Assembly: GCF_050920415.1 (NCBI RefSeq)
Contig: NZ_CP169309.1
DNA from: Escherichia coli
Lineage (GTDB): Bacteria > Pseudomonadota > Gammaproteobacteria > Enterobacterales > Enterobacteriaceae
Length of the DNA: 64,000 nt
Direction: 5' to 3' (one strand)
A model generated the notes under the pieces. It was not told the origin of the DNA and did not search any database. It saw nothing but the letters and a program-made list of their open reading frames with translations. Shown here in pieces: positions 5,957-45,695 of this stretch (positions are counted from its first letter, which is position 1; the number at the start of each line of letters is the position of its first letter). The translations under genes and the position numbers were made by a program.

Positions 5957-8034
<2,078 letters not shown>

Positions 8035-12574: not shown

Positions 12575-12797
12575 AAAAGTCTCTGTGAATGTTTATTCAA
12601 CTGATGTCTTTTAACCTAAACCACTTTCACGTTAGAAAGCAAGGGCTTTTTTATATATTTTATGGCGATGGATTTGTTTAATGAATGAGCGGGGAAAGGA
12701 GAGGGCCAGGAGTGGCTACGTTAAAAAAGTAATCGTGAAAATATGTCTTTAAAACCCTCAAGAACATTGTGTTCTGTAACTAAAGTGGGCTTGGTTC

Positions 12798-12897
12798 CTG
12801 CCGGATGCGGCGTGAATGCCTTATCTGGTCTACAAATGTTGCCTAAATTCAATATATTGATGTTTTTGTAGGACTGATAAGCGGAGCGCATCAGGCA
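12798..12897. repeat. BIME-like pair of REP elements
   Basis: ccggatgcggcgtgaatgccttatctggtctac and gactgataagcggagcgcatcaggc, REP-type palindromes. Confidence 0.5.
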
Positions 12898-13000
12898 ATT
12901 GTATATTTGCTAACAGTTTCGATTTCATTCATAGAATGAATTGTCAGTTTTGATACGCTAGCGTAGCCTTATAGATCTAAGGTGTATCAGGAGATAACGG

Positions 13001-16425: not shown

Positions 16426-16463
16426 TCTTACAAGCCGGATGACATAATCATCCGGTAAATCTC

Positions 16464-16496
16464 AAAAAGCCGGAGTTTGTCGCTCCGGCTTTTTTG
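16464..16496. terminator. Bidirectional terminator between convergent plaP and sbcB
   Basis: aaaaagccggag...ctccggctttttt. Confidence 0.75.
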
Positions 16497-16498
16497 TT

Positions 16499-20091: not shown

Positions 20092-21150
20092 GTGCGTGCC
20101 GATAAGTCATTAAGCCCGTTTGAAATCCGGGTATACCGCCATTACCGCATTGTGCATGGTACTCGGGTCGCGCTGGCATTCCTGCTCACTTTTCTCATTA
20201 TCCGCCTGTTTACTATCCCGGAAAGCACCTGGCCGCTGGTCACCATGGTGGTGATTATGGGGCCAATCTCGTTCTGGGGTAACGTTGTCCCTCGCGCATT
20301 CGAACGTATTGGCGGTACGGTGTTGGGGTCGATTTTAGGTCTTATCGCTCTGCAACTGGAGTTAATCTCGTTACCGCTGATGTTAGTCTGGTGCGCGGCG
20401 GCTATGTTTCTTTGCGGTTGGCTGGCGCTGGGCAAGAAACCGTATCAAGGTTTATTGATTGGGGTGACGCTGGCAATTGTTGTTGGTTCCCCGACAGGTG
20501 AAATTGATACGGCGTTATGGCGAAGCGGCGATGTGATCCTCGGCTCTTTACTGGCAATGTTGTTTACCGGTATCTGGCCACAACGGGCGTTCATCCACTG
20601 GCGCATTCAACTGGCGAAAAGTCTGACCGAGTATAATCGGGTCTATCAATCTGCATTCTCACCGAACTTACTCGAACGCCCACGTCTGGAAAGCCATCTA
20701 CAAAAACTCCTGACCGATGCCGTGAAAATGCGTGGGCTGATTGCGCCCGCCAGCAAAGAAACCCGTATTCCCAAATCGATATATGAAGGTATCCAGACCA
20801 TTAATCGCAATCTGGTTTGTATGCTGGAGTTGCAAATCAATGCATACTGGGCCACGCGCCCCAGCCATTTCGTGTTATTGAACGCGCAAAAACTTCGTGA
20901 TACCCAGCACATGATGCAGCAAATACTGCTGAGCCTTGTTCATGCGCTGTACGAAGGTAATCCGCAGCCGGTTTTTGCCAATACGGAAAAATTGAACGAT
21001 GCTGTGGAAGAGCTGCGTCAGTTGCTCGATAACCACCATGACCTGAAGGTCGTGGAAACACCAATCTATGGCTATGTGTGGCTGAACATGGAAACGGCAC
21101 ATCAGCTTGAGTTGCTATCGAATCTGATTTGCCGGGCCTTGCGCAAATAA
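20092..21150 (+). CDS. yeeA: Inner membrane protein YeeA (FUSC-like family)
   Basis: 352 aa, multi-TM, recognised sequence. Confidence 0.85.
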   Translation: MRADKSLSPFEIRVYRHYRIVHGTRVALAFLLTFLIIRLFTIPESTWPLVTMVVIMGPISFWGNVVPRAFERIGGTVLGSILGLIALQLELISLPLMLVWCAAAMFLCGWLALGKKPYQGLLIGVTLAIVVGSPTGEIDTALWRSGDVILGSLLAMLFTGIWPQRAFIHWRIQLAKSLTEYNRVYQSAFSPNLLERPRLESHLQKLLTDAVKMRGLIAPASKETRIPKSIYEGIQTINRNLVCMLELQINAYWATRPSHFVLLNAQKLRDTQHMMQQILLSLVHALYEGNPQPVFANTEKLNDAVEELRQLLDNHHDLKVVETPIYGYVWLNMETAHQLELLSNLICRALRK

Positions 21151-21321
21151 TTCCTGAACTTCAGAATCATCTTGCTGCTGCTTCGATTCAGCAAGGATAA
21201 AGGGTATGATAGTGAAAAGGGATAAAAGCATTGTCATCTGCGGCAGCTATGAGTAATGTTGGCCCTAACGAATAGCGGTTGCTTAAACGAATCCGACTCT
21301 CACATTATCAGGGGTATAAAA

Positions 21322-21651
21322 ATGGAAACTACCAAGCCTTCATTCCAGGATGTACTGGAATTTGTTCGTCTGTTCCGTCGTAAGAACAAACTGCAACGTG
21401 AAATTCAGGACGTTGAGAAAAAGATCCGTGACAACCAGAAGCGCGTCCTGCTGCTGGACAACCTGAGTGATTACATCAAGCCGGGGATGAGCGTTGAAGC
21501 AATCCAGGGCATCATCGCCAGCATGAAAGGTGACTATGAAGATCGCGTTGACGATTACATCATCAAAAATGCCGAGCTCTCCAAAGAACGCCGCGATATC
21601 TCCAAAAAGCTGAAAGCTATGGGCGAAATGAAAAACGGCGAAGCGAAGTAA
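21322..21651 (+). CDS. yeeX: DUF496-family protein YeeX
   Basis: ORF 21256..21651; start at [20 protein letters not shown], 109 aa. Confidence 0.88.
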
Positions 21652-21667
21652 TTCCTGTTTTATTCAA

Positions 21668-21700
21668 TGAGGGTTGCCCGGTAACCCTCATTGCTCATTG
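21668..21700 (+). terminator. Terminator after yeeX
   Basis: tgagggttgcccggtaaccctca hairpin followed by T-rich tract. Confidence 0.65.
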
Positions 21701-21751
21701 TTTCTTTTCTGTGTATCACCGTCATCATTCCCATCTGATAACCTATTGAAA

Positions 21752-21934
21752 TTAGCGATAGCCTTCTTCTGTATGCAGCAAGGCAAAAAGTTCTGCAACT
21801 CCATTGTTATTAACCGCACTGGTTACTAACACATTGTGCGCTCCAGCTTCCCGTAACCAACTTTTCACCAAAGATATTTGTTCCATACTGGCTAAATCTG
21901 CTTTGGTGACTACTCCAATGACCGGGCGATTCAT
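21752..21934 (-). pseudogene. yoeF: Remnant of a PduV/EutP-like small GTPase gene (yoeF-like fragment)
   Basis: 60 aa ORF ...[25 protein letters not shown]... resembles the C-terminus of PduV/EutP-family proteins; no full-length partner frame. Confidence 0.45.
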
Positions 21935-22519
21935 TGACGAGGTAAAGCCTGGCGAAAAAGGTGACCACGGTGCGTCCGCATTAAGTACCAGCGCGATAAT
22001 GTCTGCTTCGCAGGCACTGACTAACAGAGCACTGTAGAGGCTGCGGTTTTATCGGTGAGGACTGGCAGCAAGATTTCCAGCCTTTTGACGGTGGGCCTGT
22101 GCAATCGTTATCAGATTCGTATAGCGATTATTCAGTGCTGCTATTGATAGCAGCTGAAAGCGAGATATCCGTACCAGAATAGCTCCCTCATTCTGAGGGA
22201 ACGACGGTAATTTTGATTGCAGAACACAATGCCCGTTTGCTGAATGGTCCGGCTGGTGGGGCTGTAGCATTAATCCATTATTTGAATGAAATCAGTCATG
22301 CCAGAGAAACCGCTGTCAATGACGCATTTTGTCGGACGTTAACACGAGGAAGTCTGGCTATTCCGCAATGCCATCTTCTTTCGTAATGGATTGAGAATGC
22401 TGGATTTTTAATTATATTACGCGCAGTATTAATCGCGTAAATGTTTTGCGGTCAGCAACAGTGGGGGAACCATTGTTCTGTTCAATGAATACCATCATAC
22501 AATTGAATCAGGAGTCGGT

Positions 22520-23065
22520 ATGATGATTTTGGTGACAGGTGGAGCACGGAGCGGGAAGAGTCGCCACGCAGAGGCGCTTATTGGGGACTCTTCACAGGTT
22601 CTGTATATCGCCACCTCGCAAATCCTTGATGATGAGATGGCTGCACGGATAGAACATCATCGGCAAGGCCGCCCGGCTCACTGGCGCACAGTGGAGCGCT
22701 GGCAACATCTTGATGAATTAATTCATGCAGACATTAACCCGAATGAGGCTGTGTTGCTGGAATGCGTTACCACAATGGTGACTAATCTGTTGTTTGATTA
22801 TGGCGGCGATAAAGACCCTGATGAATGGGATTATCAGGCGATGGAACAGGCGATTAATGCTGAGATTCAGTCGTTGATTGCTGCCTGCCAACGTTGCCCC
22901 GCAAAGGTTGTATTAGTGACTAACGAAGTGGGAATGGGGATTGTGCCGGAGAGTCGTCTGGCACGACATTTTCGTGATATTGCCGGGCGGGTAAATCAGC
23001 AGTTGGCCGCTGCGGCAAATGAAGTATGGCTGGTGGTTTCGGGTATTGGAGTAAAAATCAAATGA
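22520..23065 (+). CDS. cobU: Adenosylcobinamide kinase / adenosylcobinamide-phosphate guanylyltransferase
   Basis: 181 aa, [19 protein letters not shown]-loop. Confidence 0.95.
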
Positions 23066-23805
23066 GTAAATTATTTTGGGCGATGCTCTCATTTATTACG
23101 CGTCTGCCTGTACCGCGTCGCTGGTCCCAGGGACTGGATTTCGAGCATTATTCTCGCGGTATTATTGCTTTTCCTTTAATTGGATTATTGCTTGGCGCGA
23201 TTAGCGGGCTGGTCTTCATGGTGCTGCAGGCATGGTGTGGCGTACCACTGGCGGCATTGTTTAGCGTACTTGTGCTGGCGCTGATGACCGGGGGATTCCA
23301 CCTGGACGGCCTCGCTGATACCTGTGATGGCGTATTTTCTGCACGTAGCCGCGATCGCATGTTGGAAATCATGCGTGATAGCCGTTTAGGCACCCACGGC
23401 GGTCTGGCATTGATTTTTGTTGTACTGGCAAAGATTCTGGTGTTAAGCGAGCTGGCTTTGCGTGGCGAACCGATCCTTGCATCGCTGGCGGCAGCATGCG
23501 CGGTCAGCCGCGGGACTGCCGCATTATTGATGTATCGTCATCGTTATGCCCGAGAAGAAGGGCTTGGCAATGTGTTCATTGGCAAAATTGATGGGCGACA
23601 AACCTGCGTCACACTCGGTTTAGCCGCTATTTTTGCTGCCGTATTATTGCCTGGTATGCATGGCGTGGCTGCTATGTTGGTGACGATGGTGGCGATCTTC
23701 ATCCTCGGTCAGCTTCTCAAACGGACTCTGGGCGGGCAAACCGGCGATACGCTGGGAGCAGCCATAGAGCTTGGTGAACTGGTCTTCCTGCTGGCACTGC
23801 TATAA
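23062..23805 (+). CDS. cobS: Adenosylcobinamide-GDP ribazoletransferase (cobalamin synthase)
   Basis: ORF 23026..23805; start at [18 protein letters not shown] overlapping cobU stop, 247 aa. Confidence 0.93.
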
Positions 23806-24957: not shown

Positions 24958-27208
24958 ATGATGCGTCGTGTAAATATTTTTTGCTCATTTGCTCTACTTT
25001 TTGCCAGCCATAATAGCCTGGCGGTAACTTATCCATTACCTCCAGAGGGTAGCCGTTTAGTGGGACAGTCGCTTACTGTAACTGTTCCTGATCACAATAC
25101 CCAGCCGCTGGAGACTTTTGCCGCACAATACGGGCAAGGGTTAAGTAACATGCTGGAAGCGAATCCGGGGGCTGATGTCTTCTTACCGAAGTCTGGCTCG
25201 CAACTCACCATTCCGCAGCAACTGATTTTGCCCGCCACTGTTCGTAAAGGGATTGTGATTAACGTCGCTGAGATGCGTCTTTATTACTACCCGCCAGACA
25301 GTAATACTGTGGAAGTCTTTCCTATTGGTATCGGCCAGGCTGGGCGAGAAACCCCGCGTAACTGGGTGACTACCGTTGAACGTAAACAAGAAGCACCAAC
25401 CTGGACGCCAACGCCGAACACCCGGCGCGAATATGCGAAACGAGGGGAGAGTTTGCCCGCATTTGTTCCTGCGGGGCCTGATAATCCCATGGGGCTGTAC
25501 GCGATTTATATTGGCAGGCTATATGCCATCCACGGTACCAATGCCAATTTTGGTATTGGGCTCCGGGTAAGTCAGGGCTGTATTCGTCTGCGCAATGACG
25601 ATATCAAATATCTGTTTGATAATGTTCCTGTAGGTACTCGTGAACCGCCCCGGAAATCCTGGAGACTAAACTTCCTGAGAAAGAGGTAAACAGGATGACT
25701 AAAAATACTCGTTTTTCCCCCGAAGTCCGTCAACGCGCAGTTCGTATGGTTCTGGAAAGTCAGGGCGAATATGACTCACAATGGGCGGCAATTTGTTCCA
25801 TTGCTCCAAAGATTGGCTGTACGCCAGAGACTCTGCGTGTCTGGGTTCGCCAGCATGAGAGGGATACCGGGAGCGGTGATGGTGGGCTCACCACCGCTGA
25901 ACGTCAGCGTCTGAAAGAGCTGGAACGTGAAAATCGTGAACTGCGCCGCAGTAACGATATCCTTCGCCAGGCTTCCGCTTATTTTGCGAAGGCGGAGTTC
26001 GACCGCCTCTGGAAAAAATAATGCCACTGCTGGATAAGCTGCGTGAGCAGTACGGGGTCGGACCGGTATGCAGTGAACTGCATATTGCCCCGTCAACGTA
26101 TTACCATTGTCAGCAGCAGCGGCATCATCCTGATAAACGCAGTGCCCGTGCGCAGCGCGATGACTGGCTGAAGAGAGAGATACAGCGCGTATACGATGAA
26201 AATCATCAGGTGTACGGTGTGCGTAAAGTCTGGCGTCAGTTGTTACGGGAAGGAATCAGGGTGGCCAGATGTACAGTGGCGCGCCTCATGGCGGTTATGG
26301 GACTTGCCGGTGTTCTCCGGGGTAAAAAGGTCCGCACTACCGTCAGCCGGAAAACCGTTGCCACAGGTGACCGCGTAAACCGTCAGTTCGTGGCAGAACG
26401 TCCTGACCAGCTGTGGGTGGCTGATTTTACTTACGTCAGCACATGGCAGGGCTTCGTCTATGTGGCGTTCATCATTGATGTGTTTGCCGGATACATCGTG
26501 GGGTGGCGGGTCTCATCGTCTATGGAAACGACATTCGTGCTGGATGCGCTGGAGCAGGCGTTGTGGGCCCGTCGTCCGTCTGGCACCATCCATCACAGCG
26601 ATAAAGGCTCTCAGTATGTGTCACTGGCCTATACGGAGCGACTAAAAGAAGCAAAACTGCTGGCATCAACAGGGAGTACAGGCGACTCGTATGACAACGC
26701 GATGGCTGAGAGCATCAATGGTCTTTACAAAGCGGAGGTAATACACCGTAAGAGCTGGAAAAACCGTGCAGAAGTGGAACTGGCCACACTCACGTGGGTG
26801 GACTGGTATAACAATCGACGATTGCTGGGAAGGCTGGGCCATACTCCTCCGGCAGAAGCAGAAAAAGCTTATTATGCTTCCATCGGAAACAATGATCTGG
26901 CAGCCTGAGTTCACAGATAAAACACTCTCCAGGAAACCCGGGGCGGTTCAACTCGTGTACAAATTATTGATCAGCCAGTGAAATACACAACGGAACCGGA
27001 TGGATCAAAGTGGCTGGAAGTTCATGAGCCACTGTCGCGCAACCGTGCGGAATATGAGTCAGACCGAAAAGTGCCTTTGCCAGTAACGCCATCTTTGCGG
27101 ACGTTCATTAACGGGCAAGAAGTTGATGTGAATCGCGCAAATGCTGCATTGCAGCGCCGATCAGGAATGCCTGTGCAAATTAGTTCTGGTTCAAGACAGA
27201 TGTTTTAA
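24958..27208 (+). pseudogene. ldtA: L,D-transpeptidase LdtA (ErfK) interrupted by an IS element; 5' part 24958..25640, 3' part 26951..27208
   Basis: N-terminal ORF ends ...DNVPVGTR at the IS boundary; the reading frame resumes exactly after the IS as TRVQIIDQPVKYTTEPDGS...SGSRQMF. Confidence 0.9.
25641..26950 (+). mobile_element. IS3-family insertion sequence, IS629/IS1203-like, 1310 bp, with orfA 25695..26021 and orfB 26021..26908
   Basis: Terminal inverted repeats TGAACCGCCCCGG...CCGGGGCGGTTCA; orfA (108 aa, HTH) and orfB (295 aa, DDE transposase) overlap at an A-rich slippery region; flanked by direct repeat ACTCG. Confidence 0.92.
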
Positions 27209-37330: not shown

Positions 37331-37706
37331 AGGGTAATGCCGATCTATGCTGAACAGGGGACATTAATACCCTGAGGTTGGTCAATCACCACAAAAAAAG
37401 CCTTTGAATCAAAGCAATACTCACCGAATAATAAGGCAACCTGAACTTAAATCCCCGTTAACTGCCATACATTATTATGACTTGCACTGATGTAATTAGC
37501 TAAACATTATCGTGATTTGACTAAATAGCAAAAATGATAGCTATTAAAAATAGCTCATATACTTTGTTTCCCGCTGCCGTAGAATAGATGGTCCTTCCAT
37601 GTTCAAGCATTTATTCAAAAAAAGGGGGCTCGACTGTCTTCAGATAAACAGAGAGGGATTGTAAAGTCGAGTGCCCCTAATGGAGCACTCTATAAAAAAT
37701 CAACAA

Positions 37707-45695
<7,989 letters not shown>

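Follow-up and report, generated by a model that had tools for sequence, protein, structure and literature searches.

The 868 bp that separate tmaR (yeeX) from cobU in this Escherichia coli genome (positions 21652-22519 of the window, by which we mean the whole stretch of 64,000 nucleotides that was analyzed) are best explained as a non-functional deletion scar of the pdu operon, and we put the probability of this explanation, taken as a whole, at a little under nine in ten. Two gene remnants, the 3′ end of pduV and a 5′-truncated frame related to cbiG, meet within the interval at a 5-bp junction, and in pdu-positive E. coli the same two sequences lie on either side of a region of more than 15 kb. 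In other words, the island-free state of the source genome reflects loss of pdu and not an empty phage attachment site.

Both remnants are already annotated by RefSeq as pseudogenes, and the interval is an ordinary, known polymorphism. The importance of the scar is slight beyond bookkeeping. For ST372 it has been described how E. coli lineages gain and lose pdu (PMC9997745), and loss of cob-pdu in E. coli is standard background (PMC3158058).

Contents of the Interval

The interval is bordered by two intact genes on the plus strand: on the left tmaR, a DUF496 gene (21322-21651; Pfam DUF496, E = 2.3e-45, and RefSeq annotation), and on the right cobU (22520-23065; Pfam CobU, E = 2.1e-64, and annotation). 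Gene and pseudogene calls for the interval were taken from the RefSeq record NZ_CP169399.1 (E. coli strain MFDS1022581), which is 100% identical to the window over 21200-23100. The longest open reading frames inside the interval encode 77, 73, 60, and 57 amino acids, in agreement with the first-pass annotation, which had described a spacer of about 870 bp without long open reading frames. That annotation had also taken the site to be free of prophage genes; we looked for them with a six-frame scan against the PHROG families and found none at E ≤ 0.01. No direct repeats occur in window 21500-22700, and att-like repeats are likewise absent. The features by which a prophage or integrative island would be recognized, namely phage or island genes, an integrase, att repeats, and reading frames longer than 77 amino acids, are thus all lacking from the interval. 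A search of window 21000-23200 for Rfam families, the cobalamin riboswitch (RF00174) among them, returned none at E ≤ 1. Between the convergent tmaR and pduV remnant lies a 14-nt inverted repeat (21665-21693) with the look of a tmaR terminator, which K-12 and the pdu-positive allele have kept as well.

On the minus strand, positions 21752-22048 hold 98 codons and a stop codon that correspond to PduV residues 50-147, as judged from Pfam and NCBIfam profiles and from alignment to the intact PduV of E. coli strain DETEC-P836 (locus L004). The Pfam PduV-EutP family (PF10662) matches with E = 9.7e-27 and 94 bits (cutoff 21) over profile positions 53-142 of 143, and the NCBIfam EutP family (TIGR02528) matches with E = 1.3e-27 and 96.8 bits, a score short of the 138 bits required at full length, as no more than two thirds of the PduV protein remains. 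The matches begin at profile position 48-53. The 49 N-terminal residues, including the GPSQCGKT P-loop and the DTPG motif, are missing, and the fragment has neither the start codon nor the N-terminal P-loop (GxxxxGKT) of a complete PduV. Judged by these matches it is a pduV pseudogene fragment, and RefSeq labels it an EutP/PduV family pseudogene "missing N-terminus." The first-pass description of a PduV/EutP-like, yoeF-like C-terminal fragment was accurate on both counts, as the profile matches bear out the first and the K-12 yoeF reading frame overlaps the same pduV-derived sequence (K-12 2078749-2078931, equivalent to window 21934-21752). That frame is chimeric, made up partly of island sequence and partly of the final 61 codons of pduV, so that the window remnant, with 98 PduV codons, is longer than its yoeF counterpart.

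The second remnant, on the plus strand at 22051-22386, is what is left of a 145-amino-acid reading frame resembling the N terminus of CbiG. It is collinear with the intact frame of DETEC-P836 (L004 19904-20341), which begins MKTIKPESIALFCL. The first 34 codons are gone, there is no start codon of its own, and an in-frame TAG at 22180-22182 replaces the TGG (Trp) seen in the translations of pdu-positive alleles and of other scar alleles; the RefSeq label is "cobalamin biosynthesis protein, internal stop" pseudogene. The NCBIfam CbiG family (NF004463) matches with E = 7.5e-5 and 22 bits, against a cutoff of 546, over positions 40-126 of 351, and the remnant thus stays below the thresholds of the CbiG families (NF004463; CbiG_N, PF11760; CbiG_C). 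Neither the window remnant nor the intact 145-amino-acid E. coli frame has a match in Pfam. The middle and C-terminal catalytic domains of CbiG, a protein of about 350 amino acids, are absent, since the frame stops at 145 amino acids in pdu-positive E. coli and at 144 in E. albertii and E. marmotae.

Apart from PduV/EutP, weaker GTPase families on the same stretch, and the weak NCBIfam CbiG match, the six-frame scan of the interval returned nothing else. In particular, no CbiP/CobQ similarity was found in any frame (six-frame NCBIfam profile scan, E ≤ 1), and the idea of a CbiP remnant upstream of cobU, which the first-pass annotation had raised, is rejected; the adjacent remnant is CbiG-like.

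Elsewhere in the window, several other features of the chromosome deserve a brief record. The gap between plaP and sbcB is only 73 bp (16426-16498), where K-12 has the thiosulfate uptake genes tsuB and tsuA (yeeD/yeeE), so tsuB and tsuA are absent from the source strain. The yefM-yoeB toxin-antitoxin pair, which in K-12 lies between hisL and yeeZ, is also absent, and its place is taken by a 426-bp gap with no reading frame longer than 58 amino acids (12575-13000). By annotation, ldtA (erfK) is split at 24958-27206 by a frameshifted IS3-family element into pieces at 24958-25641 and 26949-27206, and the transposase lies between them at 25695-26906. Also by annotation, a minus-strand gene of 7,989 bp (37705-45693) has as its product an Ig-like domain protein some 2,660 amino acids long.

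The Deletion Junction and the pdu-Positive Allele

DETEC-P836 is one of the E. coli whose sequence matches the cobU side of the window from 22046 on. Its tmaR is followed by pduV to pduA, which run on the other strand, and then by pduF, pocR, a cobalamin riboswitch (L004 19511-19685, Rfam 109 bits), the 145-amino-acid frame, cobU, cobS, and cobT; cbiA-P, pduW, and pduX are absent from this locus. We note separately that pduG and pduH are truncated in this strain (L004 12359-12983; the reactivase subunits are annotated as partial pseudogenes), and the presence of the operon is thus no guarantee of its function.

By blastn, window 21000-22050 aligns with L004 3247-4295 at 97.4% identity and window 22046-23200 with L004 20001-21155 at 98.4%, and the two alignments share 5 bp, GTTTT (window 22046-22050), a sequence found at both endpoints in L004 (4291-4295 and 20001-20005). 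Between these endpoints 15,705 bp are missing from the window, comprising pduU to pduA, pduF, pocR, and the cobalamin riboswitch, and the result is a fusion of pduV codon 50 to codon 35 of the 145-amino-acid frame. The anatomy of the scar and its junction can be read directly from these alignments. A second scar-bearing genome (L003) has the same junction, down to the three bases that follow GTTTT, which are ATC in both scar alleles and GTT in the single pdu-positive reference; the junction may contain a 3-bp filler instead of being one of pure microhomology. Within the remnants, two genomes that carry the scar diverge by 3-6%, which is high for one recent event and points to an old allele or to later recombination.

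Escherichia marmotae and Escherichia albertii have the same order of pduB-pduA, pduF-pocR, a 144-amino-acid frame, and cob genes, and for this reason an arrangement with pdu and without cbi appears to be the ancestral one in the genus. It is on parsimony that we would take the pdu-positive state as the starting point and count the events and their direction. As a separate observation, in the E. albertii locus (L008 6436-8812) cobS is the sole called gene between the 144-amino-acid frame and ldtA, and cobU and cobT appear to be missing or degraded.

The scar is not where the cbi operon was lost, since cbiA-P is absent from the pdu-positive allele as well and the gene order is the same in E. marmotae and E. 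albertii. The first-pass annotation had called the interval a scar of the lost cbi/pdu region, and this holds in part: pdu and cbi-related DNA have been lost upstream of cobUST, but the cbi operon was not lost here.

We suggest the following history. An ancestral locus consisting of tmaR, a convergent pduV-to-pduA operon, pduF, pocR, a cobalamin riboswitch, a truncated CbiG-like frame, and cobUST would have undergone one GTTTT-mediated deletion, which would have joined the two remnants while taking out the whole pdu operon together with pduF, pocR, and the riboswitch. A single microhomology-mediated event is the simplest reading of the junction. The change from TGG to TAG would have come later and inactivated the CbiG-like remnant further. 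The K-12-type CP4-44 island represents a separate, mutually exclusive allele at the same locus, one that the window never needed to carry.

The K-12 Island and the Alleles of the Locus

K-12 annotation gives the order cobU, CP4-44 (IS5, IS2, flu, cbeA/cbtA), yoeF, tmaR and confirms the first-pass statement that CP4-44 lies between yeeX and cobU in that strain. The cobU-yeeX position has been tabulated as that of CP4-44, with the site filled in K-12 and B but vacant in W and Crooks (PMC3032704). By blastn, window 21000-21934 corresponds to K-12 2079683-2078749 and window 22215-23200 to K-12 2066060-2065084, and the K-12 island (2066061-2078748; 12,688 bp) stands in place of window 21935-22214, a stretch of 280 bp that is present in the window and in pdu-positive alleles and whose segments have no K-12 match. 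The yeeX-side end of the island adjoins a fragment annotated as "transposase domain-containing protein," the cobU-side end a fragment annotated as "IS4 family transposase," and no repeat of at least 8 bp, direct or inverted, is common to the two junctions. The two fragments might be parts of one insertion sequence, but when compared they matched neither each other nor the IS4-family copy in E. coli strain 48 (locus L007).

With 280 bp that are missing from K-12, the window cannot derive from the K-12 allele, and precise excision of CP4-44 is ruled out on the same ground; no att-type repeats are found either in the window or at the K-12 junctions. Given that the island replaces sequence and that its junctions have no common repeat, the window represents an island-free allele and not an emptied attachment site. 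Of the first-pass claim that the site is in an unoccupied state, what survives is that a CP4-44-type island is absent, but the implied vacant attachment site does not.

To estimate the frequencies of these alleles, we searched 5,426 complete E. coli genomes with 200-bp queries that span each junction and counted the genomes matched at 80% coverage or more. The window-type scar junction is a minority allele, found in 201 genomes (3.7%). The left and right endpoints of the undeleted, pdu-positive allele occur in 646 and 645 genomes, respectively, and the K-12-type junction in 4,158 on the yeeX side and 3,726 on the cobU side, a difference that indicates further rearrangement without settling the route by which the island entered. 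The 3′ end of pduV lies next to tmaR in at least 5,381 of the 5,426. A shorter scar, represented by NZ_CM132922.1 (L006 1501-1958), has a tmaR-cobU spacer of 458 bp whose junction joins window positions 21928 and 22333 with a 6-bp alignment overlap. Its raw count of 531 genomes includes the 201 of the window type, as pieces less than 600 bp apart were merged into one place, and about 330 remain after these are subtracted. The endpoints of the short scar sit just inside the boundaries of the K-12 island, and it could have arisen by deletion of the island, by deletion of pdu, or by further deletion of a window-type scar. Four main states make the tmaR-cobU locus a multi-allelic hotspot: an intact pdu region, two scars left by independent deletions, and an island with IS elements at its borders.

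Two other histories, in both of which the island has a part, should be weighed against a pdu deletion. The lineage might once have carried a K-12-type CP4-44 and later lost it by excision or deletion, leaving the present interval. An island is indeed missing here at a locus that is occupied in about 77% of genomes, and the 458-bp scar, lying as it does inside the island boundaries, could have been produced in just this way. For the window-type allele, however, the proposal is already contradicted: the 280 bp absent from island-bearing genomes are homologous to pduV and the CbiG-like frame of pdu-positive genomes, the adjacent segment (22215-22519) shows 98.4% identity with the pdu-positive allele but only 91.1% with K-12, and att-like repeats are lacking. 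We find such a history scarcely credible. Alternatively, the 868-bp scar might be the state that preceded insertion, the island having entered an existing scar and IS-mediated deletions having then removed 280 bp around the point of entry. The K-12 boundaries (21934 and 22215) do bracket the scar junction, so that only 280 bp would have had to be lost, and transposase fragments at both ends of the island fit IS-mediated adjacent deletion. Yet replacement by the island of about 16 kb of intact pdu region explains these boundaries equally well, the window is far more diverged near cobU from K-12 than from the pdu-positive allele, and no intermediate has been seen; on balance this order of events strikes us as rather unlikely. 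Direct deletion from a pdu-positive allele is the explanation that we prefer.

The CbiG-Like Frame, cobUST, and Related Systems

The homology of the 145-amino-acid frame to CbiG is supported indirectly, by sequence comparison. The frame is 40% identical (E = 2e-22) to a 144-amino-acid frame of E. coli strain 48, which in turn matches Pfam CbiG_N at E = 1.2e-20, and it is because of this relationship that we regard the frame as a probable truncated and decayed CbiG N-terminal domain. A search of solved structures with the 145-amino-acid frame returned nothing meaningful, and in the single search made its relatives were confined to Escherichia and Shigella. The strain 48 frame belongs to a second, diverged pdu cluster carried elsewhere in that 5.9-Mb genome (L007, NZ_CP166879.1; 18615-39473), which contains a pduW-like kinase, pocR, two cobalamin riboswitches, and btuB, has a pduV about 75% identical at the DNA level, and is bordered by a cdiA locus and fragments of IS elements.

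E. albertii and E. marmotae carry counterparts of 144 amino acids, likewise open and of the same length (6001-6435 both in L008, from E. albertii, and in L010). Among E. coli, E. albertii, and E. marmotae, dN/dS is 0.32-0.42 for this frame, against 0.02-0.09 for its neighbors pocR, pduF, cobS, and pduB and no nonsynonymous change at all in pduA. By this measure constraint on the frame is strongly relaxed, yet it is not clearly neutral, and the frame could be debris in slow decay or else a leader or gene under weak constraint. That it is a maintained gene or translated leader between the cobalamin riboswitch and cobUST, and not cbi debris, seems to us decidedly unlikely. If it were maintained, it could couple riboswitch control to cobUST, for example by preventing Rho polarity, or could handle corrinoids, and most E. 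coli would have lost B12-responsive control of cobinamide salvage along with pdu.

It is a further question whether the remnants in the scar still serve some function, for example if cobUST expression needed the truncated CbiG-like frame as a promoter region or as a leader that is translated. Some scar genomes (L003) have an open frame of 119 amino acids from a new ATG, the intact frame is open in three Escherichia species with a dN/dS below 1, and the 133 bp upstream of cobU, with a promoter-like site, are kept in all alleles examined. That site, at 22391-22418 on the plus strand about 100 bp upstream of cobU, resembles a sigma-70 promoter (TTGAGA, a 16-nt spacer, and TATATT; 10 of 12 matches). 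On the other side, the frame in the window is interrupted by TAG and has no start, K-12-type genomes keep its last 57 codons only and short-scar genomes fewer, and the count of promoter-like sites is not above the expectation from shuffled sequence. We consider a functional role for the remnants very unlikely. The preferred reading of the interval as a non-functional scar leaves room for 22391-22418 as a candidate promoter left to cobUST after loss of the riboswitch region. With the riboswitch and the pocR-side upstream region gone, expression of cobUST would presumably depend on a promoter within the 133 bp that are left upstream of cobU, free of riboswitch control, and the source strain should be unable to use 1,2-propanediol.

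Among the closest known arrangements is the Escherichia-type pdu locus of DETEC-P836, E. marmotae, and E. albertii, to which the window flanks are 97-98% identical and in which both remnants have collinear counterparts; the difference is the 15.7 kb that lies between them there and is lacking in the window. The K-12 yoeF/CP4-44 locus has in common with the window the flanking genes and the pduV-derived sequence next to tmaR, but carries an island where the window has none.

The cob-pdu cluster of Salmonella consists of cbiA-P, cobUST, pocR, pduF, and pduA-X, and Lawrence and Roth (cited in PMC3158058) reportedly put forward, in 1996, a model of loss and reacquisition for it. This cluster occupies the same chromosomal neighborhood as the Escherichia locus and includes the same pdu, pocR, pduF, and cobUST families, whereas the Escherichia arrangement is without cbiA-P, pduW, and pduX and has a truncated CbiG-like frame alone between the riboswitch and cobU. 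For CbiP, which belongs to the Salmonella cluster, the six-frame profile scan of the interval found no similarity. An early loss of de novo B12 synthesis in the Escherichia lineage is a view of long standing, and an Escherichia locus that retains of cbi only a remnant of the CbiG N terminus fits it.
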